DNA of 64,000 nt from IMG/VR virus record IMGVR_UViG_3300028833_000077; one strand, 5' to 3'. Positions 1,868 through 18,999 of this stretch are shown here, piece by piece (the first letter of the stretch is position 1; every line of letters starts with the position of its first letter). A program made the position numbers and the translations under genes. Source of the stretch: a virus (taxonomy: Duplodnaviria; Caudoviricetes). The notes beneath the pieces were generated by a model, which was not told the DNA's origin, made no database searches, and worked only from the letters and a program-made list of their open reading frames with translations.

Positions 1868-3547
1868 ATGAGTACGACAACAAGTGACCTCTTGAACAGA
1901 GCCAATATAATCAAGAATGAGACTCTTGAGGGCAAGAACTCTGCTGTACGTGTGGGCAGTCTGTTTTGGGACATTATCTCAAAGATGGAAGGCAACACCA
2001 GCAAGCTCTCAACCCTTGAGGAACTCATCAACTCAGGTGGTTCAAGATACAGCAATGTGAGGGTGACTCCAGTGTATACGAATGGTGTCTTGATTGCTAC
2101 CATCAGGGTAGGTGTTCAGGACTATGCCATCTATGCACCAGGCAAGGGTGGCTCTGGTAGTGATTCTGATTCAGATGGCTATGATGACAGGGAACTCCGC
2201 AGGGAGATTGACTTGATTAAATCCAATCTTGACAATATCCTTGAGAGGGAGAAAGCAGGCATCAAGGATATGGTTGAAGAAATCCTTGCTGGCAAGAACT
2301 TCATCAGTGGCTGGCAGGCAGGATGGTATGAAACACTCAAGAGCTACCTTATCTCTGTAGGCGTCCTTGGAGCTGACGGAGTAAGCAAAGGCTGGGCATA
2401 CCTTGATACCAAATACAACGACCTTGAGGCAGCAGTTAATAGCCTCAGGAGAATCGGTGAGGACAATCAAGGTCTTTATGAGACTCTGCAGTCACAGTTG
2501 AATCTTTTCATCCAGAATGAATTTGGTGAATTGAGTACTGCTGTTGGAGAGCTTAAAACAAGATACGCATTGACTGCTGATGATAAGACTGTATTGAAGT
2601 GGTTGACTGCCCAGCTTAGGGTTCAGGCAGGTGCGAATGGCTCACTTGCACAGCTGTTTGCTACTGCTAGTGACAAGGCTCGTTTGCAGGATGCTTTGGC
2701 ACTTCTTGAGGCCAGAGTGGATGATATAGAAGGAAACTATGTGTCTACAGCTCGTCTTATTGCTCAAGTAAGGAATGAGATAGATGGTCGTATCAGTACT
2801 GGCGGTCTTATTACAACTGCTTCTCTTGATAGGGCAGTCACAACTCTCTTTGCTGAGAGTGGAGACAATACATCCAGTGCAAGGGCTGCAATAGACCTGA
2901 TAGTTGAGAATGGTATTTCCAGCATTGTGGAAAGGGCTGACATTATACAGGCTATAGCTAACAGGATTGTGATTGACGGCTCACAGATAGACATTACAGC
3001 TGACCAGATCAATGCTGCAATGGAAAGTCTTAGGGTTAAAGTATCGGACATCATTATTGGAGATGGTAAAAGACAGGGTTCTGACTATTATGACCGTATG
3101 TTAATACATACCTACAAGGAGCCAGGTAGTGATAAGATTCTTGGCATGGAGCTTCTGTTTGGTAATTTCCAAATAAACAATGCAGGAGATGTTACTATGT
3201 CTAAGCCCGGTCTTAGGTGCAGATTTAACTACTACTACTTGGATGCTCCCAAGATTGTTTCTAGCCAAATCATGCTTCCAACCCAGAACCTAAACGGTCC
3301 TTCCTATCTGGATTTCAATAAAGATAGTGTTATCAGGTGGTTTAATACTGTAGGAAATCCAGAGACAAATCAGACTGGAGACGAGTATGGCATTGATGCA
3401 AATGGCAACATGGGAACCAATGAGACTGATGGTGCTGTATTAACTGATAAGAGTACAGTAGGCAATAGTGCCAATGGTTATATTACCTTTGAGGGAGATA
3501 CCATTGTCATACATGGTAACCTCAAAATAAATGATAGAACCATATAA
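1868..3547 (+). CDS. Putative tail fibre/spike-type virion protein (coiled-coil middle, beta-rich C-terminus)
   Basis: N-terminal 'LLNRANIIKNET.EGKNSAVRVGSLF' resembles Bacteroidota phage structural proteins; helical middle; beta-rich end 'ITFEGDTIVIHGNLKIN'; lies in the tail module. Confidence 0.5.
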   Translation: MSTTTSDLLNRANIIKNETLEGKNSAVRVGSLFWDIISKMEGNTSKLSTLEELINSGGSRYSNVRVTPVYTNGVLIATIRVGVQDYAIYAPGKGGSGSDSDSDGYDDRELRREIDLIKSNLDNILEREKAGIKDMVEEILAGKNFISGWQAGWYETLKSYLISVGVLGADGVSKGWAYLDTKYNDLEAAVNSLRRIGEDNQGLYETLQSQLNLFIQNEFGELSTAVGELKTRYALTADDKTVLKWLTAQLRVQAGANGSLAQLFATASDKARLQDALALLEARVDDIEGNYVSTARLIAQVRNEIDGRISTGGLITTASLDRAVTTLFAESGDNTSSARAAIDLIVENGISSIVERADIIQAIANRIVIDGSQIDITADQINAAMESLRVKVSDIIIGDGKRQGSDYYDRMLIHTYKEPGSDKILGMELLFGNFQINNAGDVTMSKPGLRCRFNYYYLDAPKIVSSQIMLPTQNLNGPSYLDFNKDSVIRWFNTVGNPETNQTGDEYGIDANGNMGTNETDGAVLTDKSTVGNSANGYITFEGDTIVIHGNLKINDRTI

Positions 3548-3575
3548 TCAAAGCTATATAAAGGAAGAGTAGAGT

Positions 3576-4025
3576 ATGAAGAAGAATGTAAGGACAGAAG
3601 TGATTTCAAATGCCTACGAGCTTATAGGCAGTGCAGACTACAAGAGCTTATCAGATAAGGACAAGATTGCCCTCTGGAAGATTTCCAGACTGATGAAGCC
3701 CATAGCAGTCAAGTTCCTTGGGGACAAGAGTGATGCCATCAAGAGCTTCATCACTCCAGAGTTTGCAGAGGCATTCAAGAAGTTCCAAGGATTCAAGACA
3801 TCAGGTGAAAACCTTGAGAGTGAGGAATACAAGGAATGTGCCCAGACAGTGTTGAAGGCCAACCAGCTGATGGAGGCTGCCTTGGGAGAACTGGCAGACA
3901 AGGAGGTTGAGGTTGAGTTTGAGCCACTCAGTGAAGGTGCTGTAAGCTCATTGCTGTTAGGTAATAACTGGCCTCTTGCAAAGGCAGAGTTCCTTGAGTG
4001 GATGATTGAAGATAGTGATCTCTAA
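3576..4025 (+). CDS. Hypothetical protein (possible fibre-associated chaperone)
   Basis: Intact 149-aa helical ORF directly after the putative fibre gene and before a terminator. Confidence 0.6.
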   Translation: MKKNVRTEVISNAYELIGSADYKSLSDKDKIALWKISRLMKPIAVKFLGDKSDAIKSFITPEFAEAFKKFQGFKTSGENLESEEYKECAQTVLKANQLMEAALGELADKEVEVEFEPLSEGAVSSLLLGNNWPLAKAEFLEWMIEDSDL

Positions 4026-4112: not shown

Positions 4113-6173
4113 ATGGAGATAAATGGAAAGACCCTAATACTGGAACCAGGTGAGGAACTGACCATCAAGGTCAGGGCCAATCAGCCTATGCCAGAACCTG
4201 AAGTACCTGAACAGCCTGAAGACCCTTCAGGAGCAATCAGCTTCCCTGACCTCATCGAGGAGTTCAACCTTGTGTTGGAGAAATATGGCTTCAATGCAGT
4301 GTTTGAAGGTACTGAGACTTGGGTATACCTCAAGGAGATGTATGATGCAGCTCTGGATGAATGGAACACCAATGCCCATGACTTCCTCAGTGAAAAGACA
4401 TATCCTGAGGTGTATGACTATCATGGAGACAATGACAGCTATGAGAAGAACTTCCTCACACTGAATGCCATGACCTCATGGCTGATGGCTATGTGCCTTA
4501 CTGAGATTGTACCTCTCTACAGTGAGTCTTACAACTCACAGACAGCATTGTTCCGCGAGGCATTTGACTTGGGCGGAGGAATAACAGTCGCACTCTATGA
4601 TGAGTATACAGTCAAGGGAGACCCCATGATTGCAAGGCTAGCAGCAGGATGTGTGTATGCCACTATCAGGGGTACTAAGACATTCAGCTACATTGACCTC
4701 TTGAGAGAAGAGCTTGGTGGGTTGCCCATCAGTGGTTCCTCATGGGAGGACTTGGGATACACCAATACCATGCTGACAGATGACTTGGGTAGAAGAGGCT
4801 ATATGATGCAGAATCTGGGATACCTTGTCAACACTCAGGTATTCCTTCCCAATGCTCCAGGCCCAAGAATTGAAGGTACTACAGTGTGTGAGCTGGCACA
4901 GCCTTGGGAGGATGGGCAGCCTTCATGGCAGTATCATCTTGCTACTGGCAACTACTTGGCTGATGAAGCCATCAACAGGCATATGGTAGACCATTGGAAC
5001 ATGATGGCACAGACTCCATTGTCAGAGTGGAACAGCTACTCTGATGAGAAGAAGGACAGGCTCATCAATGCGGCAGCCACAGTTACCTGTACCTATAATT
5101 ATATGTTCGGTACACCTAAGCCTGTAATCCTTGTGCTTGAGAACAACAGACTTCCTGTTGTTGATGGCTATCCAAGGTATGTGTTTGAGGAGGATGCTGA
5201 CAGCAACCTTGTCATTGACGGACCATTCTCTGACTTGGCAGGAATATACAGATACAATGCAGATGGGAATGAAACCACTGAGGAGATGTTCCTCAAGACA
5301 GTGCTTGACATAGCAGACAACTGCAGGTTCCCAACCCAGGATCCTAACTACGGAAGATGCAGACCTGGTTGCAGACCTACTAGGGAAGGTGGAGAGCTCG
5401 GCAGTACACATGGTGCTGCGGAGAATGAGATATACAACATCTCCATTGCCTCCATTGTAGCTGACAATGATGCCCAAAGGGATAAGATTGCAGGTGAGGA
5501 TGGATGGGCAGCAGACTCTCCAAGGAGCTATGTGTCTGGCCATTCAGCACAAATCATCACCATGGCACTCATGCTGGGGCAGATGTCACCAGACAAGATG
5601 CAGTACTACATGAGGAGGGCCTATGAGTACTCAGTCAATAGGAGCATTGCAAGGTTCCATTGGAACAGTGACTGTATCCTTGGAAGGCTCTACGGTACCA
5701 TGATATTGCCCATACTCAATGCCATGGAGGGACTTCATGATGGATATGAGGCAACCAAGAGAGCTGTTGTGAATGGTGTCCAAGGAGATGTCAAGTTCAA
5801 GCTTACCATAGAGAATACCACTCCCAATGATATAACCCTTGATGGGGATATGGTGTTTGTGCTTGCCAACCCTGACAAGAAGGGCAACTATTATGGATGG
5901 GAAGGTGCATACAACAGGACAGGACACATCAGATTCTGCTCTTCTGCTGTCACCATTCCTGCTGGAGGCTCCAAGGTGTTCAGTGTGGATGCCACTAACT
6001 CAGAGATTGCCTTGAGAGGCAGGAACTGTCTTGTCCCTGACTTGCTCCCAGTGGCAGACAGGCCAAGGAATATATTGCTGTATGTAGACGGCAACTCAGA
6101 GGCTGTGTTGGCAGACAACATGGATCCAGACATTGTGTTTGAGGATGGAGGTAACTATAAGCTGACCATATAA
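4113..6173 (+). CDS. PAP2-superfamily (class A non-specific acid phosphatase/PhoN-like) protein with C-terminal beta-sandwich
   Basis: Catalytic motifs 'RCRP' (5355-5366), 'SYVSGHS' (from 5526) and 'NRSIARFHWNSD' (5637-5672) match the PAP2 motifs RP / PSGH / SRx5Hx3D. Confidence 0.8.
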   Translation: MEINGKTLILEPGEELTIKVRANQPMPEPEVPEQPEDPSGAISFPDLIEEFNLVLEKYGFNAVFEGTETWVYLKEMYDAALDEWNTNAHDFLSEKTYPEVYDYHGDNDSYEKNFLTLNAMTSWLMAMCLTEIVPLYSESYNSQTALFREAFDLGGGITVALYDEYTVKGDPMIARLAAGCVYATIRGTKTFSYIDLLREELGGLPISGSSWEDLGYTNTMLTDDLGRRGYMMQNLGYLVNTQVFLPNAPGPRIEGTTVCELAQPWEDGQPSWQYHLATGNYLADEAINRHMVDHWNMMAQTPLSEWNSYSDEKKDRLINAAATVTCTYNYMFGTPKPVILVLENNRLPVVDGYPRYVFEEDADSNLVIDGPFSDLAGIYRYNADGNETTEEMFLKTVLDIADNCRFPTQDPNYGRCRPGCRPTREGGELGSTHGAAENEIYNISIASIVADNDAQRDKIAGEDGWAADSPRSYVSGHSAQIITMALMLGQMSPDKMQYYMRRAYEYSVNRSIARFHWNSDCILGRLYGTMILPILNAMEGLHDGYEATKRAVVNGVQGDVKFKLTIENTTPNDITLDGDMVFVLANPDKKGNYYGWEGAYNRTGHIRFCSSAVTIPAGGSKVFSVDATNSEIALRGRNCLVPDLLPVADRPRNILLYVDGNSEAVLADNMDPDIVFEDGGNYKLTI

Positions 6174-6187
6174 TTTTTAAAGACGGT

Positions 6188-9100
6188 ATGAAGAAGCAGG
6201 TTGGATTCAAGACCAAGGGAATGAATAGGGACATGAGTGTCTCTGCATTCAATCAGGAGTTTGCCTTTGAGAACATGAACCTCAGGCTCTCCACCAATGA
6301 AGGCAACACTCTCATGAGCTGGGTGAATGAGAAGGGCACAAGTCCCATCACCATTTCCAGAGGCATAGTGGGAGTGGAGAATTTCATCAATGGGTGTGTG
6401 GTAGGCACTGCTGTACTCAATCATTTCCTTATACTGTTTCTGACGAAGTGTTGGGATGAGGGCACCAAGGACTATTATGACTCCATCGTAAGGCTTAAGT
6501 ATGAGGGGACGGACAAGAACAGCATGGTAGCCAAGGTGTTGTACAGTGGTCTTGAGAAGGGCAATCTGGGTTTCATGGTGGAACATCCTCTTGAGACCCT
6601 TGTGTCCTTTGAGAGTGACCATATCCAGAAGGTGTACTGGACAGACGGCATCAACCAGCCTAGGCTCATCAACATTGCCCCAGAGAATGATGGGCACATA
6701 GGCAGATACACCAACACTTCCTTTGACTTTATACCGACCCTACAGCTGAATGAGGACATCCATGTAAAGAAGATACTTGGCGGAGGGGGAATGTTCGCAC
6801 CTGGTGTCATCCAGTATGCCTTCACCTATTATAATAGATATGGGCAGGAATCCAATATATTCTATACTACACCACTGTACTATATCTCTTATGCTGATAG
6901 GGGAGCCTCTCCTGAGGACAAGGTGGACAATGTGTTCAGGATTACTGTAGACAAGCCAGACAGCAACTTCGACTACCTGAGGATATACTCCATCCAGAGG
7001 ACAAGCATCAACAGCACTCCAATGTGCAAGAGGATTCAGGACATTGAGGTGGCTGAAGAACCTAAGAGCGTCAGCTTCACGGATACTGGAACAGCAGGTG
7101 ATTCCATAGATCCTACAGAACTTCTCTACAAGGGGGGACATGGTATTCTTGTAGGCACTATGGAGCAGAAGGATGGAACACTGTTCATGGGAGACATTGT
7201 CACACCTAGCATCAAACATCCTAAGGCAGGGGTCAGCTTGGAGACATCCACAAGGACATTCTATCCCAATGTAGTGTCTACCGACAGCTATGAGTATGCT
7301 AATCAGCTTACCTCATATAAAGATGCCACCAAAGAGGAGAGTGTTCCATGTGCAGGCTTCAAGAAAGGCAACTTCTATAGATGTGGTGTGCAGTTCCAGG
7401 ATGAGCATGGTAGGTGGAGTGATCCTGTATTCCTTGAGAATGTGGAGATAGACATCTCGCCTGAGGCTGTCACCAATGTCAAGGAGGAACCTGAGGGAAC
7501 CTATGACTTTGAACTACGTGAAGTCATCATAGCCAACAACAGCCAGTATCCTCTTGTAATCTCCAACATAGCCAAGTTCGCATTGGTTGGCAAGGATGGG
7601 AAGTTCGTGTTTACAGTGAAATTGGGAAACTTTGACTCTCGCACTATAGAGTCAGGTATGCAGGATGTGTATAACAAGGCAGTCATACTGGATGCCAAGA
7701 AGTACAGTGGCCTCAAGTTCTGCACAAAGGATGAGTACACCAAACTAGGCATGGAGAGCAATGTGTCACTCAAGGCCTATGGTTCCAAGAGAGGATATGT
7801 CCTTACACCCATTACAGCAGGAACTGCCATCAACAGCAGTTCTACCTACACGATTGAATGTACGGAATCATTTGATCCTGCACCTCAGGAAGTGCCGTTT
7901 GATGAGGACTTGGATGGACTGTTGATGTACTTCAATCCTATACTGAAGGCAGCAGGCACCAAAGAAATCACCAATACAGCCACTCCATTGACTTATGCCT
8001 ATCTTAAGGCGGCCTATGACTTGGCAGACACTGAATGGAGCAGTAATGCCCACTCGTTCTTCAGTGCAACAACATATCCTGAGATATACAACGGCAGTGA
8101 CTATCGTGGGACCAATGACACCTATGAAAAGAATGGTACAAGCCAGTTGGCCATGCAGTCTTGGCTGGTAGCCATGTGCCTGTCTGAATTGGCACCTACT
8201 TCAGGAACCAATACCAACACACAGACGGAATTGTTCAAGAAGGCCTATAATTTGATTGATGGCTCTGGTGATGGGAAGAAAGTTCCCCTCTATGGAGGTT
8301 ACACCTTGAAGGGAGACCCTATGATTGCCAGATATGCTGCAGGAGCCATATATGCCCTCAACAGGGCACCCAAGAGTTTCTCCGACATGCAGCAGATGAG
8401 GACTGAGCTCTGGGGAGACAATGCAGATCATTCCATCAATGCCAGTGACTGGTCAGGACTGGAATATTCACCTGACAACTACAAGTTGTCCATGGAGAAT
8501 CTCGGCTATCTTGTCAACACTGATGCTTTCCTGCCAGGGGCATTCGGGCCTTGGGCATCAGGAGAGTTCTACAGTAGCTTCCCCTATGGACAGTCTTCAG
8601 ACCAGTACTACAACAGTCCTACAGAGGCAGGTAGGTTCTGGGAAGCCAATAACTACAAGGTGGATGTCAATATAGACAATACCATTACAGATACCCTGAA
8701 TGGTTATATAGCATATTCTCCTGATGGCAATGGGGGCTATACCTTTGCAGGAAATAAGGAGAAGCTCCAGAGGCTTTTTGAGTCTGCTGTCATAGGAAGG
8801 GCCACTGACTTTGTGTTCTTCGGTAGGAAAAGACTGAAGTACACTAATACTATAGCAGCTACATTGGTAGGACATAATGTGTCACTGCATCGTTTCAGTG
8901 AAACTGATGATAGTATTGCCGATAGTAATGTCTATGAATATACAGGCCCATTCTATTCTGAGCAGCTTCAGGACTATCTGTTCAGCAACCAGGGAACCTA
9001 TACGGCTACAGCTGAAGGCAGTAGCATCACTCAGGAGCTGACTTTCTATGAGAGGAAATCTCCCATGCTGTTCTTGGATGTTGTCAAGGACATTGCCGAC

Positions 9101-12100
9101 AATGGAAGGTATCCCTCACATTCAGCTTATAAGAGAATCAGGCCTTGCGGCAGTAACCAAGGAGGAGAGACCAGGGCGCAGAACCAGACAGATGCTCTTG
9201 GTGGATTCGAGTGTGGCAGCCTTACTTCCCTCTTTGCAGACACCAGGGACCAGGCAGATGCTTGGGGTGCAGGCCTTGAGCAAGATGACTTCCCCGGTGA
9301 TAGCTATGGAAAGTCCTATCCTTCAGGACACAGCTCCCAGGTATGGGCATTGGCTATGTATCTTGGACAGATGAAGCCCTCCAGCATTACTGAGTACATG
9401 AGGAATGCATACAGGTTCTCGGTGAACAGGACTATAGCAAGGGCGCATTGGAATTCTGATGTCATGTATGGCAGGATGTTTGGTACGATGGTGCTTCCCA
9501 TCATTAATGCCATGAGTGGCCTCCAGTCGGATTATGCATCCTTCAAAAGTGCCATGGGAGAAGGTGGAGGTGATGTGCCGTCAGGTGATGTCAGTGTCAA
9601 TATTGTCATTGACAACCAAACAGGAGCTGATGCCTGTATTACAGGCGAACTCAGGATATATGTGGAAGATGGTACTGGTGGGTATGTCGGAATGAACATG
9701 CATACACCAAAGTTCATCTCAGGTAATGACACTTACTATATTCCCCAAGGAAGGACAGAGTACTCAAGTCTTGCCTGTTCGGTCAATGGTGACTCTGTCT
9801 CTGCCAGCAGTTTTGTTGGAAACAGCATGAGCAGCCTTAGGAGTCCTATAGTGTATGGTTTTGATGGACAGAACCACCACAGTACTTTGTTTGCCGTTGA
9901 CATGCTGTCAGGTACATTCAGCAATGATGGTACCTATATACTTGTACTTAGGCAGGGAGAGGCATATGGCAATATGGTATGTACTACAAGCAGAACACTC
10001 AGTAAAGGTATGCTTAAGGCTCCAACCCCAGCTGCTACCAGGAGTGGGGAAGATGCAGATGCCCCAGTGGAGACCATTGAAGTAATAGAATCTCCAAAGG
10101 CGGATATGACAGTCACTGTTCCAACCATAAAAGGCCTCATTACCAGTGAGGAGGCTAAGAGGCTGTATAGAGAAGAAGGATACAGGAAAGTCAGGGCTGT
10201 AGTGGTCTACCCAGACATGCAGAACAGGAAGGTCATCTGCCAAGGTGTAGCCTGTCCTACACTGTATACTCTCAACAATAGAGGTGAGGGAAGCTCTGAT
10301 GAATTGCAGACCAAAAGCATATATGCACAATCCTCATGGTTCTTCAGGCCTAGATACTCTAATACAAAATACAGTGAGGACACCAATGTTCCTGCCAGTG
10401 CCCCTGGTGACTATATTGGGTACATGAATGCTGGAAGTTCCTCTACTTTGGCAGTAATATCGGGTCCCGTATGGACTATAACTGTCGATGGAGTACAAGG
10501 TTGTAATCCAACCTACATCAAGAGAACTGAGGTTCAAGGTTCATTCAATCCAGGGAACAAGTTCAAAGTGGAGTGGAGGACACTTACCTACCATGTGCCT
10601 GACATTGTGTTTGATGACAGCATGCTTGCCTTTGACTATGGCTCTGGTGGTCTGGATGCCTATCAGGTGGGTAATGTCTCCTTTGTGAGGACCCTCTCCG
10701 ACATAGACATACGGACAGAGACTCCAACCATCAGTAAGAATGCCTCTGGATTCATCAAGAAGTCCTTTGTCAGGGGTGATGCATCAGGCATCATAGCAGG
10801 GTTGTTCTACGAGGACTATGCTGTCAATGACAGTACAGGCGAGAAGGAGGAGAAGTTCAAGCCTTTTGTATCCCAGAGTGTTCCCATGAAGTGGATGGTC
10901 TATCCTTGGAATAGGACAGGTTCCCTCAACAACGATATTTCCAGACCTGCTGGATACGGTGTGCAGACAGCTGTACTCAAGCAGAAGATCATATCCAATC
11001 TCAGGGTGACCAACTCTGTCTTTGAATTCGAAGGGGATAAGTCATCCCTTGGATTCAAGGCACAGCTGTTCTACAGTAATGAGCCTGAGATAATAAAGCT
11101 TGACTTGAAGGACAGCAAGGGCTCCAACATCTATATGGGCAACATAGACACCATGCTTATTCCAGATGAGCCTGATGGCCTGTACTTCTCCATATGCAAA
11201 GACCCTGACGATGAATATGCCCCTACTCCTCAGTTTACTGACAAGGTATATTGGAAGACTTTTGCCAAGAACAATAAGACAGGTGAAACGAGTGACAAGG
11301 GTGCTTGGTATTTTGGAGGGGATTCATGGGAACGGATGGACACTTGTTTTGGTCAGGACCTCGGTGATGAGTATACAGATACTGTATTAAGCAAAGGACA
11401 GGTAAGGATGAAGTATAAGTCCACTCCGCATCTGGTGCTTACTGGAAGCAGCAGTCTTGCCACATACAATACGGAAGGGTGCCTCCCCATATTGGAGCTC
11501 AGAAGAAACATTGAGAGAGCCAAGGCCTTCGGTGGGAACTCCAAGGACATCCTGCATGAACAGCTATGGATTCCTTGCGGAGAGCCTGTCAGGCTTTGGG
11601 AAGGCCCTCAGGACGAACCTGCATTCAAGGATGTGGAGTTTGAATATTCTTGGGGTGATACCTACTATCAGAGGTGGGATTGCCTGAAGACCTATGCCTT
11701 CACTCCTGAGGACATCAATCAGGTGGTGGAGATAGGCTCCTTCATGCTTGAGACCTATGTCAACATTGACGGTAGGTATGATAGGAACAGAGGACAGTTG
11801 AGCAATCTCTATATGTCACCTCAGAACTTCAACCTACTCAACCCAGTGTATTCCCAGTTGAACAACTTCTTCACCTACAGGATACAGGATGATGAGTTCT
11901 ACAAGCTAAAGAAATACCCCAATCAGATAACATGGTCAAAGACGAAGACCTCAGGTGCTGATGTTGACATGTGGACCAATGTGACACTGGCATCAATCCT
12001 TGAGCTTGATGGTGACAAGGGTACTGTCAGGAAGCTCATTAGGTTTAACAACTATCTGTTCTCCTTCCAGGATATGGGTATATCCCAGATTCTCTACAAT

Positions 12101-13150
12101 GACAATGTGCAGATCAATGCAGCCGATGGGGTGCCCATTGAGATAGCCAACTCTGGAAAGGTACAGGGTAAGGATTATAAGAGTGACACCATTGGATGCA
12201 GCAACAAATGGAGTCTGGTCAAGACACCTTCGGGCATCTACTTCATGGATTCCGTCAATAAGGGGATATTCATGTTCAATGGGCAAGTGAATAACCTGTC
12301 AGGCTCTTTAGGCATGAATACATGGTGCAAGGAGAATATCCCAGACAGCTCTGTCGATTGGACTCCCTATGACTACTTGATTAAAAATGATGATACTGAG
12401 ATATTTGTAAATGGGTTCCAGAACTTTGTCGCATACTATGACAAGTTGAATCAGGATATACTGTTCATCAACAAGCAGACAGCTTTGGCATTCTCAGAGA
12501 GACTGGGTACATTCACATCATTCTATGACTATGGAGAGACCTCGTATCTCTGCAACTTGCAGGATACAGGACTGTGGCTCAAGGTTGGTACAGAGGAGAA
12601 GGAGGGTGTGGATACTAAGCCGCATGTGGAATATACTACTGCTCTTTGGAAGCATCAGGGCGGAGAGTACTGCAAGTTCTTTGGAGAAAGTAAGTCTTAC
12701 TGGATGACACTAGTAGGCAATCCTGAGCCTCAGTTTGACAAGATATTCACTAACTTGGAGTTCAGGGCAAGTGTAGATGGTGATGGTGAGTTGAATCGTT
12801 ATACAGGCAAGTTCACCCCTGCACTCCCCTTTGACTCCTTGGAGACATGGAATGAGTACCAGCATGGTATTGCGAATCTTGCAAATATGAGAGGCCATGA
12901 CCAGTTCAGGCATCATACTACTGACAACAATGGTACTCTCAAGAGGAAGTTCAGGATATGGAGGTGTGACATTCCTAGAGACAATGCAGAACTCAATACT
13001 GATGCTGCATTGGGCATCTTCAGGAAGACCAAGCCACGCAGGCTGGACAGGATGAGGAACCCTTGGCTGTACCTCAAGCTTCAGAAGGATGCAGCAGATA
13101 CCATGCCCAGAACTGAAATACACGACATTGTAGTATCATATTTCCTATAG
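6188..13150 (+). CDS. Tail stabilisation/muzzle protein of crAss-like phages with a large PAP2 phosphatase insertion
   Basis: Characteristic termini 'KGMNRDMSVSAF..EFAFENMNLR...NEKG', 'VYWTDGINQPR.INI', 'GDTYYQRWDCLKTY', 'KRKFRIWRCDIPR...RMRNPW'; internal 'SYPSGH...NRTIARAHWNSD'. Confidence 0.85.
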   Translation: MKKQVGFKTKGMNRDMSVSAFNQEFAFENMNLRLSTNEGNTLMSWVNEKGTSPITISRGIVGVENFINGCVVGTAVLNHFLILFLTKCWDEGTKDYYDSIVRLKYEGTDKNSMVAKVLYSGLEKGNLGFMVEHPLETLVSFESDHIQKVYWTDGINQPRLINIAPENDGHIGRYTNTSFDFIPTLQLNEDIHVKKILGGGGMFAPGVIQYAFTYYNRYGQESNIFYTTPLYYISYADRGASPEDKVDNVFRITVDKPDSNFDYLRIYSIQRTSINSTPMCKRIQDIEVAEEPKSVSFTDTGTAGDSIDPTELLYKGGHGILVGTMEQKDGTLFMGDIVTPSIKHPKAGVSLETSTRTFYPNVVSTDSYEYANQLTSYKDATKEESVPCAGFKKGNFYRCGVQFQDEHGRWSDPVFLENVEIDISPEAVTNVKEEPEGTYDFELREVIIANNSQYPLVISNIAKFALVGKDGKFVFTVKLGNFDSRTIESGMQDVYNKAVILDAKKYSGLKFCTKDEYTKLGMESNVSLKAYGSKRGYVLTPITAGTAINSSSTYTIECTESFDPAPQEVPFDEDLDGLLMYFNPILKAAGTKEITNTATPLTYAYLKAAYDLADTEWSSNAHSFFSATTYPEIYNGSDYRGTNDTYEKNGTSQLAMQSWLVAMCLSELAPTSGTNTNTQTELFKKAYNLIDGSGDGKKVPLYGGYTLKGDPMIARYAAGAIYALNRAPKSFSDMQQMRTELWGDNADHSINASDWSGLEYSPDNYKLSMENLGYLVNTDAFLPGAFGPWASGEFYSSFPYGQSSDQYYNSPTEAGRFWEANNYKVDVNIDNTITDTLNGYIAYSPDGNGGYTFAGNKEKLQRLFESAVIGRATDFVFFGRKRLKYTNTIAATLVGHNVSLHRFSETDDSIADSNVYEYTGPFYSEQLQDYLFSNQGTYTATAEGSSITQELTFYERKSPMLFLDVVKDIADNGRYPSHSAYKRIRPCGSNQGGETRAQNQTDALGGFECGSLTSLFADTRDQADAWGAGLEQDDFPGDSYGKSYPSGHSSQVWALAMYLGQMKPSSITEYMRNAYRFSVNRTIARAHWNSDVMYGRMFGTMVLPIINAMSGLQSDYASFKSAMGEGGGDVPSGDVSVNIVIDNQTGADACITGELRIYVEDGTGGYVGMNMHTPKFISGNDTYYIPQGRTEYSSLACSVNGDSVSASSFVGNSMSSLRSPIVYGFDGQNHHSTLFAVDMLSGTFSNDGTYILVLRQGEAYGNMVCTTSRTLSKGMLKAPTPAATRSGEDADAPVETIEVIESPKADMTVTVPTIKGLITSEEAKRLYREEGYRKVRAVVVYPDMQNRKVICQGVACPTLYTLNNRGEGSSDELQTKSIYAQSSWFFRPRYSNTKYSEDTNVPASAPGDYIGYMNAGSSSTLAVISGPVWTITVDGVQGCNPTYIKRTEVQGSFNPGNKFKVEWRTLTYHVPDIVFDDSMLAFDYGSGGLDAYQVGNVSFVRTLSDIDIRTETPTISKNASGFIKKSFVRGDASGIIAGLFYEDYAVNDSTGEKEEKFKPFVSQSVPMKWMVYPWNRTGSLNNDISRPAGYGVQTAVLKQKIISNLRVTNSVFEFEGDKSSLGFKAQLFYSNEPEIIKLDLKDSKGSNIYMGNIDTMLIPDEPDGLYFSICKDPDDEYAPTPQFTDKVYWKTFAKNNKTGETSDKGAWYFGGDSWERMDTCFGQDLGDEYTDTVLSKGQVRMKYKSTPHLVLTGSSSLATYNTEGCLPILELRRNIERAKAFGGNSKDILHEQLWIPCGEPVRLWEGPQDEPAFKDVEFEYSWGDTYYQRWDCLKTYAFTPEDINQVVEIGSFMLETYVNIDGRYDRNRGQLSNLYMSPQNFNLLNPVYSQLNNFFTYRIQDDEFYKLKKYPNQITWSKTKTSGADVDMWTNVTLASILELDGDKGTVRKLIRFNNYLFSFQDMGISQILYNDNVQINAADGVPIEIANSGKVQGKDYKSDTIGCSNKWSLVKTPSGIYFMDSVNKGIFMFNGQVNNLSGSLGMNTWCKENIPDSSVDWTPYDYLIKNDDTEIFVNGFQNFVAYYDKLNQDILFINKQTALAFSERLGTFTSFYDYGETSYLCNLQDTGLWLKVGTEEKEGVDTKPHVEYTTALWKHQGGEYCKFFGESKSYWMTLVGNPEPQFDKIFTNLEFRASVDGDGELNRYTGKFTPALPFDSLETWNEYQHGIANLANMRGHDQFRHHTTDNNGTLKRKFRIWRCDIPRDNAELNTDAALGIFRKTKPRRLDRMRNPWLYLKLQKDAADTMPRTEIHDIVVSYFL
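7470..10100 (+). other. In-frame ~880-aa insertion in the muzzle protein: beta-sandwich + degenerate PAP2 + active PAP2 + beta-sandwich (boundaries approximate)
   Basis: Colinear similarity to the 4113-6173 protein; motifs KRIRP (9131-9145), SYPSGH (9314-9331), NRTIARAHWNSD (9425-9460); flanked by muzzle-type 'GRWSDPVFL' and 'GYRKVRAVVVYP'. Confidence 0.75.
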
Positions 13151-13154
13151 ACCT

Positions 13155-13622
13155 ATGAAGACATTGACTGTAGCAGCAACCTTGATAGCCTTGGCCTCAG
13201 TGCTTGTGTGGAGAATCATCTACAAGAGGATGCCAAAGTCCTTGAGTCAGATGGTGAAGGCATCTCCCAAGTGGGAGTACATCTTTGCAGGTGTTCTTGC
13301 AGTGTATGGCATCACCACATGGCTGTCCTGCATAGACAGGCTCCCTGAGAATCTACAGTGGCTGTTGTGGCTTACTGAGGTGGGACTGGCCATAGTGGCA
13401 GTAACTCCCATCACCAACAAGGACAGTGAGGAAATACATCTTACTGGGGCACTCATGTCTGCCATAAGCATCAATACACTTGCATTGCTGTTATGCCCAT
13501 ATGTACTGCTTACATGGACAGGATACCTCATATACACTTTCCTGACTGATTGCTTGCATAAGAAGCTGGTGGCAGAGATTGTCTGTGGTATCATCCTGAC
13601 CTTGGTAGTGCTGCTTGCGTAG
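13155..13622 (+). CDS. Multi-pass membrane protein
   Basis: About 5-6 hydrophobic segments in 155 aa. Confidence 0.7.
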   Translation: MKTLTVAATLIALASVLVWRIIYKRMPKSLSQMVKASPKWEYIFAGVLAVYGITTWLSCIDRLPENLQWLLWLTEVGLAIVAVTPITNKDSEEIHLTGALMSAISINTLALLLCPYVLLTWTGYLIYTFLTDCLHKKLVAEIVCGIILTLVVLLA

Positions 13623-14818: not shown

Positions 14819-17194
14819 ATGAGTGCAATAGACTACGCTAATAGCCAGGACTGGCTTGCCTATCTGAATGGCAAGAAGAAGACCCAGGACAAGATACCTA
14901 CCACCAATGTGTTTGGAGGGTTTCCATTCTCAGCACCTTCCTTTGCTGCTGGTGGCAAGATGAAGAGAAAGAAGAGGGGCAAGATGGCTGAGAACAGACT
15001 CATTGAGGAGCCTGGTATGCCACTGTTTGCCTATGGTGGAAGTCTCAAGACAGCCAGTACTCCTACGGTAGAGCCTGTTGGAGTGTTCGACAATGGCAAG
15101 GATACACTGTTTGCCTTAGGAGGAGTACTCCAGAGTCATGGCTCTGACTGGGGCGATGGTGCCACCCACATTGATGCTGGAGGCTCCCATGAGGAAAATG
15201 TAAATGATGGTGTACAGATGGGTGTTGACCAGAACGGGGTGCCCAACTTGGTCGAGGAAGGCGAGGTGGTTTTTAATGAATATGTCTATTCCAGAAGGAT
15301 ACATCTCGATGAAGAGGCAAAGAAGATGCTCCATATTTCCAAGAATAGGGACATCACCTATGCTGATATGGCCAAGAAGCTTGAGAAGGAGTCTGAGGAA
15401 AGGCCTAACGACCCCATCAGTGCTGCTGCCTTGAAAGCCCAGATGCAGGATTTGGCAGACCAACAGGAGAGACAGAAGCAGGAGATGGAGGCTGAGAGGG
15501 CTGAGGAGGCATTCAATGCCCTTAGTGATGAAGAGAAGGTTGCACTCATGCAGCAGGCAGCAGAACAGGAACAGATGGCTCAGGAGCAGGCTATGGCAGA
15601 AGAGCAGGCAATGCAACAGCCTTCACCTGAGGAGATGGCTGCTATGGAGCAACAGGCTGCTATGGATCAGCAGATGTCTCCTGAGGAAGCAGCTATGATG
15701 CAGCAGCAGATAGCAGCTCAAGGAGGCCCTTCCTTTGAGGAGATGCAGGCAAACGTGTCTGCCTTGGGAGGAGTATTGTCAAGAGCTGGTGAGGATAAGA
15801 ACATTCTTGCCCTTGCAGGTCCGATCAGCAAGAAGACCAACCGCAGACTGCTCCGACATTATGATGAAGATTGGTTCTATCAGCAGGCTAAGGCTCTTGG
15901 TATGGACGATGAGTGGATTGAGGAAAATATGAGGAAGAGCTTTAAGTTCGATCCTGACAATGCTGAGGCAAACATGAATGCCTTTAATAATATCTATAGG
16001 AGGTTCCAGGAGGATAGGGCGCGCAGGACTTATAGGGAAGGACAAAGGAAGTCCAAGGCCAATGAACTCTTTGATGCCAATAAGGGGCTCTATAGGATGT
16101 CGGATGATGGAAAGATTCTTTATAAGGCCAAGATAAACAGTGCCAACAGGAAGGGCTGGATCAACAAGGACTATACTGGAGACATGGTGGATGACCTTAT
16201 TCCTGGATTCCTGACTGATGAAGAGTATAACAAGAAGAGAGCTCTTTGGGAAGCAGAGACAGACAAGGATAAGAAGGCCGCATTGCTTGCAGAACTGGAA
16301 AGCTATAAGCCTATAGACCAGAAGATGGGAGACAGGATGATAGGCTATAACGGGCAAGTCATCTGGGGAGACCCTGAGTTGGATAAGGACGGTAACCCCC
16401 TGACCAAGGAAGGGCTGCTTGATTCCTTTACCTATGATGATGGATTCAAATGGGATGAGAAAGATGTCAATACACTTGATTATCCTGCAGAAATGGAAAC
16501 CAGCAATATCTCAAAGCTTAGGTATGCACCTTTGGCATTCAACGGCTTAGGACTGCTTTATAATGCGTTGACTCCTGCAGACTACAGTAGGGCGGGGGCA
16601 GTGACCAATATAGGTTCTGGAGGTGTCCCATCACTGGTACACCCTGACTATAGAGGCAACTATGCCACATATATTCCTGTAGACCCATGGCTGCAGAAGG
16701 CACCTTTGATTGCACAGGCAAACAGTGTGGCAAGGGGTATCAGGAATAGTGGTGTAAACCAAGGGGCTATGATAGCAGGCCAATTAGGACTTGACTATAA
16801 TACCAATAATGCCTTGGGTCAGGCTGATGCGGCAGCACAACTCCAGAATTTTGACAGGAGGATGAAGGTGCTTGATGTCAACAACAACTTGGACAAGACC
16901 TACATGGCTTTGGATATGGAGGCCCAGAAGGCCAATCAGAATGCTCTGCTACATGCTGGGGATAATGCAAACAGATATAGGTTTGCTGGACTGTCGATGA
17001 TGGAGGATATTGACAGGAACAAGAGTAATGCGATAAGCCTCAATGCTACGAATCTGGCTGAATCTGCAAGGAAGATTGGAGAAGAGGGCTATGATATGGA
17101 TAGGCTTAAGTGGCTTAACAGGGCTGGTGTCTTGAAGGGAAGTTATTGGAGAGGAAAATATGGAGGACAACTCAGTAAGAAAGGAGGTAGATAA
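14819..17194 (+). CDS. Putative virion cargo protein
   Basis: 'IDAGGSHEEN..DGVQMG.D.NG.PNLVEEGEVVFN.YVYS.R' block typical of crAss cargo proteins; Q/A/M-rich linker. Confidence 0.65.
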   Translation: MSAIDYANSQDWLAYLNGKKKTQDKIPTTNVFGGFPFSAPSFAAGGKMKRKKRGKMAENRLIEEPGMPLFAYGGSLKTASTPTVEPVGVFDNGKDTLFALGGVLQSHGSDWGDGATHIDAGGSHEENVNDGVQMGVDQNGVPNLVEEGEVVFNEYVYSRRIHLDEEAKKMLHISKNRDITYADMAKKLEKESEERPNDPISAAALKAQMQDLADQQERQKQEMEAERAEEAFNALSDEEKVALMQQAAEQEQMAQEQAMAEEQAMQQPSPEEMAAMEQQAAMDQQMSPEEAAMMQQQIAAQGGPSFEEMQANVSALGGVLSRAGEDKNILALAGPISKKTNRRLLRHYDEDWFYQQAKALGMDDEWIEENMRKSFKFDPDNAEANMNAFNNIYRRFQEDRARRTYREGQRKSKANELFDANKGLYRMSDDGKILYKAKINSANRKGWINKDYTGDMVDDLIPGFLTDEEYNKKRALWEAETDKDKKAALLAELESYKPIDQKMGDRMIGYNGQVIWGDPELDKDGNPLTKEGLLDSFTYDDGFKWDEKDVNTLDYPAEMETSNISKLRYAPLAFNGLGLLYNALTPADYSRAGAVTNIGSGGVPSLVHPDYRGNYATYIPVDPWLQKAPLIAQANSVARGIRNSGVNQGAMIAGQLGLDYNTNNALGQADAAAQLQNFDRRMKVLDVNNNLDKTYMALDMEAQKANQNALLHAGDNANRYRFAGLSMMEDIDRNKSNAISLNATNLAESARKIGEEGYDMDRLKWLNRAGVLKGSYWRGKYGGQLSKKGGR

Positions 17195-18999
17195 TGCCGA
17201 ACTATAGTTTAGTAGCGAATACCCAGTTTCAGAATAGGAGCTTTGATGATTTGTTGAAGCCCTTGGCAATGTACACCCAAGAGTACAATGCCTTGGAGGA
17301 TGCACTTGGTGAACTTGACACCAAAGCAAGTATATGGGAAGGGATGGCCAATGAAGAGTCAGACCCTATAGCATATGCACAGTATAAGAGGTATGCAGAT
17401 GATCTGAGGAGTCAGGCTGCATCCTTGGCACAAACAGGTCTTAATCCATTGTCAAGGAAGAGTATGCTCAATCTCAAGAGAAGATATGCTGCTGAGATTG
17501 CGCCTATTGAGCAGGCCTATGCCAATAGGAAGATTCAGGCTGATGAGCAGAGAAAGGCCCTTCTTCAGAATCCCACCTTGTTACTCTCAAGGAGGGCGGA
17601 TGTTACATCATTGGATGACTATCTCAAGAATCCTCAGTTAGGGTATGAGTCCTACAGTGGTGCCCTTCTCACCCAGCAGGTAGGGACTGCTGCTGCCCAA
17701 ATAGCCAAGTCACTTAGAGAGTATGGAAATGGGAAGGCTCTTGATGGTTTTACAAAGACATGGCTCCAAGAGCATGGCTACACAGCAGAGGAGGTATGGC
17801 AGGCCATTCATAATCCTGATAGTCCCAAGAGTTCCAGAATACTCAACTCCATGGTGGATAATGTCATGGCCGATTCTGGTATTCCACAGTGGGCAGACAG
17901 AGGGACTCTTAACCAGGCATATAATTATGCAAGACAGGGATTATGGCAGGCAGTAGGACAGACGCAGATACAAACATACACTGATGAGGCTGCCAAGTTG
18001 GAGGCTGATTTTAGAAACAAAAAGGAACTTGCACGTATGGCTGCTGAAGCGGCTGCAAACAGTATGCCTGAAGTAGCTGCAGATTATCAGACCAGACCTG
18101 TAAGAACTTCCACAGAAATGGTTGAGCAAATGAAAGCGAAGGGTGATTGGGATGAATTCAAGAAGTACTTCTACAAGACAGAGAATGGCTTATGGCACAT
18201 GACTTCTGAAGGTAAGAAAAGGTATAAAGCAGCAGCAGATTGGTTCAAGCATTTACCTGAGGATGTTAAGAATGGCAAATTGAAAAATCCCTATGAGACA
18301 CCAGCTGAAGCATTAACTAGGGCTAATCACTTGGATAAGTTTGGTTCTAGGGAAAAACCATTGTATGATGGTAGGGAATTTATGGATTTTGTTGACAAAA
18401 TGGGTATTAGTTCTATGGCTGATAGTAAACCAGGTCCTGAGCAGAGTAGAGTACTTGATACATTTGTGGCAAAAGCCAATGATACATATGACACTAATAC
18501 GGCTACAGAGACTATCCGAAGGATTCATCCTGAAGATTACAAGGATGTAATGGCTGTTGTGAAATCATTGGCAAAAGGAAATGAGCTTACCAATAATGAA
18601 CGAATCAAGGAAGGCAATTCATACAGATTCAGTGAGGCTAAGGATAAGGTCGATATAACCAAACTTAAGGATTCCGACATAGCGTATGCTCAGACAGTGA
18701 CTGGTATACATGGCAACTATCTAGAGGTGAAGATGAATGATGGAACTACTCTCAATATTCCTCAAGCATACATTAATAAGGATCGTTCAGGCCTTATCGA
18801 AGGTTTGAATAACTATGCTGCAGAGCTTGAAAAGGAAAAACAGGCAGGCAAGCAATATGTGGAGGATGCAAACGGGAATATTATTCCGATTAGCCTGGCT
18901 ATTGTAAGGGCTAGAAATAGTGGGCATAAGAACTTCTTATCAAGTTTGGGTGCGGCCAAGATAAAAGAATCAGAGGTAGAAGAGGGATTATATAAGTAA
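17194..18999 (+). CDS. Putative virion cargo protein
   Basis: 601-aa ORF translationally coupled (TAATG) to the previous gene; N-terminus 'MPNYSLVANTQF..RSFDDLLKPL' is crAss-like. Confidence 0.6.
   Translation: MPNYSLVANTQFQNRSFDDLLKPLAMYTQEYNALEDALGELDTKASIWEGMANEESDPIAYAQYKRYADDLRSQAASLAQTGLNPLSRKSMLNLKRRYAAEIAPIEQAYANRKIQADEQRKALLQNPTLLLSRRADVTSLDDYLKNPQLGYESYSGALLTQQVGTAAAQIAKSLREYGNGKALDGFTKTWLQEHGYTAEEVWQAIHNPDSPKSSRILNSMVDNVMADSGIPQWADRGTLNQAYNYARQGLWQAVGQTQIQTYTDEAAKLEADFRNKKELARMAAEAAANSMPEVAADYQTRPVRTSTEMVEQMKAKGDWDEFKKYFYKTENGLWHMTSEGKKRYKAAADWFKHLPEDVKNGKLKNPYETPAEALTRANHLDKFGSREKPLYDGREFMDFVDKMGISSMADSKPGPEQSRVLDTFVAKANDTYDTNTATETIRRIHPEDYKDVMAVVKSLAKGNELTNNERIKEGNSYRFSEAKDKVDITKLKDSDIAYAQTVTGIHGNYLEVKMNDGTTLNIPQAYINKDRSGLIEGLNNYAAELEKEKQAGKQYVEDANGNIIPISLAIVRARNSGHKNFLSSLGAAKIKESEVEEGLYK

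Follow-up and report, generated by a model that had tools for sequence, protein, structure and literature searches.

What does a crAss-like phage gain from carrying two copies of an acid-phosphatase module side by side, one in a stand-alone protein and the other buried within its muzzle protein? This question is raised by a 64,000-nucleotide (nt) stretch of DNA from a crAss-like phage (IMGVR_UViG_3300028833_000077; herein referred to as the window, with all positions being those of the stretch), in which an enlarged, stand-alone acid-phosphatase protein of 686 amino acids (aa) (P0001; 4113..6173, plus strand, as are all features of the two genes given below), recognized from its open reading frame (ORF), a Pfam PAP2 match and an AlphaFold2 model, is encoded by the last gene before a muzzle gene whose 2320-aa product (P0002; 6188..13150) contains an inserted cassette with a second copy of the same module. 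We hypothesize that the module is a histidine phosphatase displayed on the virion and having a phosphorylated constituent of the host envelope as its target while the phage adsorbs or penetrates, a reading that we consider moderately probable from the sequences and the predicted structures.

The two copies are readily aligned to one another. Residues 25-595 of the 686-aa protein match muzzle residues 564-1168 with 37% identity (BLASTP, E 5e-92), which agrees with an earlier note on this DNA that had called the two regions colinear paralogues; that note had extended the colinearity over the whole ~880-aa muzzle segment, and although the inserted cassette is indeed of this length, the part that is colinear with the free protein comprises ~600 aa plus a beta-sandwich. 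The module itself measures ~515 aa in both proteins, and a tblastn search of the 64-kb stretch finds just these two copies and no third. In the free protein, motif 1 reads GRCRP (residues 414-418, with R415, R417 and P418; 5352..5366), motif 2 SYVSGH (472-477, with H477; 5526..5543) and motif 3 NRSIARFHWNSD (509-520, with R510, R514, H516 and D520; 5637..5672), and the muzzle counterparts are KRIRP (982-986, with R983, R985 and P986; 9131..9145), SYPSGH (1043-1048, with H1048; 9314..9331) and NRTIARAHWNSD (1080-1091, with R1081, R1085, H1087 and D1091; 9425..9460). The second PAP2 motif (P-S-G-H) is present as VSGH in the free copy and as PSGH in the muzzle copy, and the third (S-R-x5-H-x3-D) as N-R-x5-H-x3-D, with Asn in the place of Ser. 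The sole solved structures matched by sequence are those of the class A nonspecific acid phosphatases (NSAPs), at E ~2e-7 from a single sequence and at E 2e-14 in a PDB profile search with a 55-sequence family profile.

Structure prediction bears out the class A assignment that the earlier note had made from the motifs. The free protein was modeled with AlphaFold2 and the 55-sequence family alignment, reaching a predicted local distance difference test (pLDDT) score of 90, and the AlphaFold2 model of the muzzle cassette has a pLDDT >90 over the module and poor values in the flanks. Salmonella PhoN ranks first for both predicted models in VIA-align comparisons: the free copy superposes on PhoN 2a96_B with Z 17.4 and a root mean square deviation of 2.9 over 214 of 219 residues (model range 208-558), the muzzle copy on 2a96_A with Z 16.6 over 209 of 217 residues, so that ~96% of PhoN is aligned, and lower scores are obtained for membrane PAP2 enzymes (Z <=9.2) and vanadium haloperoxidases (Z 7-8.4). 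In these models, both copies are complete, soluble, all-helical class A acid-phosphatase folds.

Around this fold, the free protein is predicted to have further parts. A short N-terminal beta segment (aa 1-22, with model strands at residues 2-4 and 7-9) and a Pro/Glu-rich linker (aa 23-40, pLDDT <50) form a candidate anchor (4113..4232), whose N-terminal segment differs between family members and appears to have been exchanged; then follow an N-terminal helical domain (aa 41-205; 4233..4727; helices in the model), which is conserved together with the module and gave no clear PDB match in a structural search, the class A fold delimited by VIA-align (aa 208-558; 4734..5786), which contains ~130 inserted residues, and a C-terminal beta-sandwich (aa 559-686; 5787..6170) of Fn3-like or adhesin-like character (fn3_5 below cut-off; BF1858, Z 5.7). 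Many phage proteins also have this sandwich as a mobile domain on its own, with many matches falling on residues 555-685 alone. The muzzle copy repeats the arrangement: its phosphatase module (aa 564-1130; 7877..9577; defined by BLASTP, AlphaFold2 and the PhoN match) consists of the helical domain and the class A fold (aa 753-1127), and is followed by a beta-sandwich (aa ~1133-1259; 9584..9964; strands in the model; BF1858, Z 5.1) and an Ala/Pro-rich linker leading to the IG2 domain. The beta-sandwiches of both copies bear a weak likeness to Bacteroides adhesin-like proteins (Z 5.1-5.7).

Conservation across the family is, at the level of sequence, strong evidence of selection on catalysis. 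Among 169 modules that cover >=80% of the domain and extend down to ~30% identity, R415, R417, S475, R514 and D520 are kept in all 169, and H477, H516, R510 and G476 in 168; considered as motifs, the Arg and Pro of motif 1, the SGH of motif 2 and the R-x5-H-x3-D of motif 3 are each present in 166-169 of the modules. By the predicted mechanism, which follows the chemistry of PAP2 enzymes, His516 (His1087 in the muzzle) would attack the phosphate ester and form a phospho-histidine, His477 (His1048) would serve as the acid together with Asp520 (Asp1091), and the arginines would bind the phosphate.

Several observations weigh against a catalytic, virion-displayed module. The earlier note had stated that both copies keep the catalytic motifs, and this holds for RP, SGH and R-x5-H-x3-D and fails for the canonical Lys of motif 1 (K-x6-R-P): R-P is invariant, and the Lys at position -7 is replaced by Asp in most family members, the free copy (D410) included, and by His in the muzzle copy (H978), being present in just 1 of the ~190 motif-1 contexts read across the family. 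The Pfam PAP2 profile (PF01569) scores both copies above its gathering score of 27.2 bits, yet narrowly (27.8 bits for the free copy and 34.9 for the muzzle copy), and the NCBIfam PhoC equivalog scores 29.9 and 42.2 bits against a cut-off of 430; judged by sequence, the module is a distant relative of PhoC and no orthologue. Finally, at least six unrelated types of N-terminal segment precede the same module, and phages that have the type-A segment share no other detectable protein with the window within 10 kb on either side of the gene, so that no common docking partner is evident. With regard to the lysine, an Arg situated 11-12 residues upstream of the RP arginine (R405 in the free copy, nt 5325-5327; R974 in the muzzle copy) is kept in 168 of the 169 modules, to the same degree as the catalytic residues, and may substitute for it.

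The missing lysine would also be accommodated if the module were a binding-only adhesin, in which the old active site recognizes a phosphorylated host ligand without turnover, and the adhesin-like beta-sandwiches that flank the module and a modularity like that of receptor-binding proteins would fit such a role; however, over ~70% divergence, 168-169 of the 169 modules retain the Asp and both His residues, nucleophile and acid, whereas binding would not need all of them, and we hold a loss of turnover to be improbable. A different chemistry would be that of a vanadate-dependent, haloperoxidase-like generator of oxidants. The active-site residues are common to both enzyme classes, vanadium haloperoxidases are among the structural matches, and the N-terminal helical domain gives a weak internal-repeat signal against the catalytic half (hhalign E 2e-4, probability 40-50%), with the match falling on the three helices after motif 2, such that this ~165-aa domain (4233-4727 in the free copy, 7877-8440 in the muzzle copy) may be a degenerate copy of the catalytic helices, a repeat of the kind possessed by haloperoxidases. 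Against this stand the structural scores themselves (Z 7-8.4 vs 17), sequence matches that are solely to class A phosphatases, and the little peroxide that the anaerobic gut or rumen offers, which together render an oxidant generator very improbable. A phosphatase thus remains the reading that we prefer for the module.

Where does the second copy sit? The 2320-aa protein is a Crassvirales muzzle, as the earlier note had recognized, with Pfam matches to PF25731 (crAss_MUZ, E 7e-264) and PF25729 (crAss_MUZ_C, E 1.7e-12) that flank the insert inside one uninterrupted ORF. In a MAFFT alignment of this protein with crAss001 gp44, cr116_1 and 12 metagenomic muzzles, the cassette (aa ~428-1310, ~880 aa; 7469..10117) is a single insertion between gp44 residues ~404 and ~411. 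The IG2 domain of the crAss001 muzzle spans residues 318-1021, and the crass domain grows from later IG2 loops at 453-904 and 940-1012 (PMC10172136); muzzles are known to differ in length owing to inserts within IG2 and the crass domain (Bayfield et al. 2023, PMC10172136). Combining the insertion point with these published limits places the cassette in the IG2 loop that precedes the crass domain. By this alignment, the cassette is outside the most distal crass domain, and the earlier note's phosphatase at the tail tip is therefore only an approximate description, although simple sandwich topology suggests that the IG2 loop points to the distal side, as does the crass domain. An insert of 880 residues in six copies would be too big for the channel, which argues that the cassette lies on the outside. 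As the module is encoded as one polypeptide with the muzzle, its presence on the virion follows from the reading frame, and if the muzzle is hexameric as in crAss001, six phosphatase copies would decorate the tail end, each held in the IG2 loop between beta-sandwich domains and flexible linkers.

The same IG2 loop is occupied in another metagenomic muzzle (P0249, 1858 aa) by a beta-rich insert of ~390 aa (residues ~435-830). This insert was considered as a relative of the phosphatase cassette and shows no similarity to it; the occurrence of an unrelated insert at the same site indicates that the loop is an insertion hot spot.

The phosphatase cassette is rare among muzzles. None of the best 120 of 4269 muzzle homologues (44-54% identity) has a PF01569 match or a module detectable by BLAST, in keeping with the lineage-specific insertion supposed by the earlier note, and P0002 is the only muzzle among the module-bearing proteins of 1276-4060 aa in a collection of 5.8 billion proteins. 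Its being the sole full-length example in that collection would be expected of an assembly chimera or a broken gene. However, the 2320-aa ORF is uninterrupted and matches muzzles on either side of the insert, the exact protein is present on three contigs from different sources (including a 74.6-kb JGI metagenome contig), and no break in GC content was found across the insert. In addition, the cassette is seen in just one other protein fragment, P0147, of 424 aa and recovered from a different sample, which aligns colinearly, at 37% identity, with residues 1032-1479, over the junction between cassette and muzzle, and therefore represents a second, diverged lineage with the same arrangement. An assembly artefact, which the earlier note had itself raised as a concern, is practically excluded by the three contigs, the even GC content and the P0147 junction. 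A recent foreign origin of the insert likewise finds no support in its GC content. In the second phosphatase-muzzle fragment (L010 1-1531), the 424-aa ORF is bounded by stops at both ends, and similarity to the module and the muzzle continues past them, reflecting either sequencing error or a decaying gene.

Beyond muzzles, the module is widespread. An exhaustive HMMER search delineates a family of 291 clusters at 50% identity, and the free protein has more than 100 homologue clusters of ~690 aa. Such free homologues are found in phages that have nothing else detectable in common with the window within 10 kb on either side of the gene, on contigs of 80 kb, 320 kb and 382 kb, the 320-kb contig encoding a T4-type portal, and also in phages that bear diversity-generating retroelements (DGRs) and a tape-measure gene, with some of the loci lying beside the DGRs. 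The module spans crAss-like, jumbo and DGR-bearing phages, far wider than the crAss-like phages of which the earlier note had spoken. Longer members add collagen-like repeats, Big_2 domains, BspA-type leucine-rich repeats (LRR_5), or a phage tail collar together with a T4 gp10 C-terminal domain, and one protein of 3370 aa (P0109; L024 10001-20113, on a 61-kb contig, near a T4-type portal gene) has three phosphatase modules in a single chain. By analogy, swapped N-termini and fusions of this sort are the pattern of enzymatic receptor-binding proteins. Representation in existing resources is sparse: just five loci were found in IMG/VR; among deposited phage genomes, megablast with the region returned nothing and tblastn with the insert returned only bacterial-type PhoN fragments, so that no deposited phage genome has the module; PHROGs holds no family for the free protein, and a Foldseek search of BFVD gave no significant viral match.

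These fusions bear directly on the stand-alone protein, which consists of N-terminal segment, linker, enzyme and beta-sandwich, is encoded within the structural operon and is probably also a tail appendage. Only the muzzle copy may instead be displayed on the virion, with the free protein being an ejected or packaged cargo or an intracellular enzyme acting, for example, on nucleotides or signaling molecules. Indeed, sequence analysis of the free protein reveals no signal peptide, which sets it apart from class A NSAPs as secreted periplasmic proteins of ~25 kDa, its gene adjoins the cargo gene block, and no docking partner was identified. Nevertheless, the same module is physically inside tail proteins elsewhere, appendages typically have exchangeable N-termini and a C-terminal beta-sandwich, and a free phosphatase gene is located between Ring 1 and the muzzle gene in at least three crAss-like phages; we regard the cargo or intracellular role as unlikely, though appreciably less so than the loss of catalysis discussed above, and retain a tail appendage as the preferred role for the free copy.

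The gene order of the window is that of Crassvirales, with ring and cargo genes on either side: a Ring 1 homologue at 2-580 lies upstream of the phosphatase gene, only 14 bases separate the end of the 686-aa ORF from the muzzle start, and homologues of cargo 1 (14819-17194) and cargo 2 (17194-18999) lie downstream. The nearest deposited phage is cr116_1 (Steigviridae), with just 39% identity over the C-terminal 1000 residues. Between Ring 1 and the phosphatase gene, the context includes a 559-aa coiled-coil, fibre-like protein, the C-terminal part of which has been swapped, and a 149-aa helical protein (1868..4025, plus strand).

How did two copies come to be neighbors? The earlier note had described the module as grafted into the muzzle, and an origin of the graft in the neighboring gene is contradicted by the phylogeny. 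In a phylogeny of 112 modules, a well-supported clade of ~690-aa proteins includes the free copy and a different supported clade the muzzle copy, and a tree constrained to unite the two window copies is worse by 262 log-likelihood units (approximately unbiased [AU] test, p 9e-9). A local duplication is thereby ruled out. The nearest relative of the muzzle copy in the tree is P0096, a free protein of 758 aa with 53% identity over aligned columns, whose gene, in a different crAss-like phage, has Ring 1 on one side and the presumed muzzle gene on the other. By these sequence relationships, the two copies are old paralogues united by gene flow.

Comparison with a sister phage (L002) indicates that the neighborhood is mosaic. 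As far as nt 6172, where the free phosphatase gene ends, the DNA of the two phages is 94% identical, and it is so again from ~12735 onwards; between those points, L002 has a 457-aa ORF and a cassette-less muzzle of 1576 aa, with 48-53% protein identity. DNA identity falls to undetectable or very low levels at 6173-12734, which is precisely the muzzle body, and likewise at 2613-3552, where the 559-aa fibre-like ORF has its C-terminal part, also exchanged relative to L002. These exchanged blocks mark the stretch from Ring 1 to the muzzle as a recombination hot spot, of the type usually associated with host-range determinants, and the muzzle body and its neighboring genes are probably recombination cassettes that set host range. 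The extra 457-aa ORF, situated between the phosphatase gene and the muzzle gene (L002 6787-8160), matches no Pfam family, and its N-terminal 140 residues are similar, with 44% identity, to the beta-sandwich at the C-terminus of the free phosphatase.

Other genes around the pair were observed in passing. A 384-aa homing endonuclease gene of the NUMOD/I-HmuI type lies at 582-1736, between Ring 1 and the 559-aa ORF, with a GC content of 0.33 vs ~0.46, and L002 has a related gene for such an enzyme (55% identity over 94 aa; L002 14599-15838), flanked by two pieces of its cargo-1 gene. Directly 3' of the muzzle gene, a 155-aa hydrophobic and apparently multi-pass membrane protein is encoded at 13155-13622; it is 98% identical in L002 despite the swapped muzzle.

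The module also has relatives in bacteria. Prevotella sp. khp7 encodes a 510-aa homologue (P0384; L020 7854-9386) with 32% identity, whose chromosomal surroundings are ordinary and include neighboring GH97 and SusC/SusD genes. It shares the helical N-domain and the YGRxRPG variant of motif 1, and its N-terminus is predicted to be a lipoprotein signal peptide, with acidic residues after it. Judging by this predicted lipoprotein, the phage module probably derives from, or shares ancestry with, envelope phosphatases of Bacteroidota, and the khp7 protein is, on sequence grounds, a candidate cellular ancestor. One homologue-bearing element is on a 197-kb contig of a Prevotellaceae metagenome-assembled genome, and the names of some samples resemble those of rumen studies. 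The host of this gut or rumen phage is probably a member of the Prevotellaceae.

We propose that phages may use an enlarged, soluble, class A (PhoN/PhoC-type) PAP2 module as an enzymatic domain of tail appendages. Its role would be the removal of phosphate, or the cleavage of a pyrophosphate or phospho-linkage, on a surface glycoconjugate or envelope lipid, with lipid A or lipopolysaccharide (LPS)-core phosphates, phosphorylated capsule and pyrophosphate lipids as candidate substrates among which we have no preference, and would parallel that of tailspikes that cleave or deacetylate glycans. More broadly and more tentatively, as a possibility that we place somewhat short of probable, phosphatase-armed appendages would constitute a distinct and widespread class of host-attack enzymes in the Prevotella-rich gut and rumen, stripping phosphates from LPS or lipid A, capsule or another surface phospho-glycoconjugate and thereby exposing a receptor or causing local loosening of the outer membrane, and here built into the muzzle, which is thought to contact the membrane and to control ejection. 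If active, the module would extend phage adsorption on Bacteroidota by a new chemical step. The steps of crAss-like infection are still poorly understood, and with the module, the part that the muzzle plays at the cell surface can be addressed concretely; the family, which comprises about 290 clusters (50% identity), could also be annotated in viromes.

Among known systems, the class A NSAPs (Salmonella PhoN 2A96/2AKC, Escherichia blattae NSAP 1D2T and Morganella/Klebsiella PhoC) are the closest in fold: their ~220-residue all-helical structure superposes with Z 15-17 over ~96% of the chain, and SGH in motif 2, R-x5-H-x3-D in motif 3 and RP in motif 1 are held in common. Unlike them, the phage module lacks a signal peptide, is interrupted by ~130 residues and preceded by the ~165-aa helical domain, has D or H in the place of the motif-1 Lys together with a conserved upstream Arg, and is embedded in phage structural proteins. 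The Bacteroidota lipoproteins annotated as "phosphatase PAP2 family" (~510-560 aa) have the same enlarged module with its helical N-domain and YGRxRPG, and differ in being cellular and chromosomal and in having a lipoprotein signal peptide. Vanadium haloperoxidases (3W35, 4USZ, 1VNC) share the superfamily core, the active-site residues and a two-domain helical build, but their structural match is far weaker (Z 7-8.4) and they have no sequence match to the phage module. On the side of the muzzle, crAss001 gp44 is matched over its full length on both sides of the insert and has the same order of Ring 1 ... muzzle, cargo 1 and cargo 2, whereas gp44 (1371 aa), the cr116_1 muzzle (1355 aa) and the 120 closest homologues are all without the ~880-aa cassette of P0002.

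Enzymatic tailspikes and fibres, such as the P22 endorhamnosidase, the K1F endosialidase, the O-antigen deacetylase gp63.1 of G7C and the teichoic-acid-degrading appendage gp12 of phi29, offer the nearest parallel in architecture. As in the free protein, they join an enzyme to an N-terminal anchor that can be exchanged and to a beta domain at the distal end, and, as here, they are shuffled horizontally among unrelated phages and occupy hypervariable host-range locations; unlike them, the module described here is a putative histidine phosphatase of the PAP2 superfamily and is set, for the muzzle copy, in the central tail-end protein instead of a fibre. Tail enzymes that cut or deacetylate sugars are known, and in the searchable literature we found no report of one that removes phosphate, of a PAP2-class virion enzyme or of a phosphatase-bearing crAss muzzle, in line with the earlier note, which knew of no such muzzle. 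The catalytic fold, the muzzle protein and enzymatic tail appendages as a kind are therefore already known; what is new is the PAP2 phosphatase as a proposed class of tail enzyme, the enlarged form of it that lacks the lysine, and the insertion of this module into the crAss muzzle.

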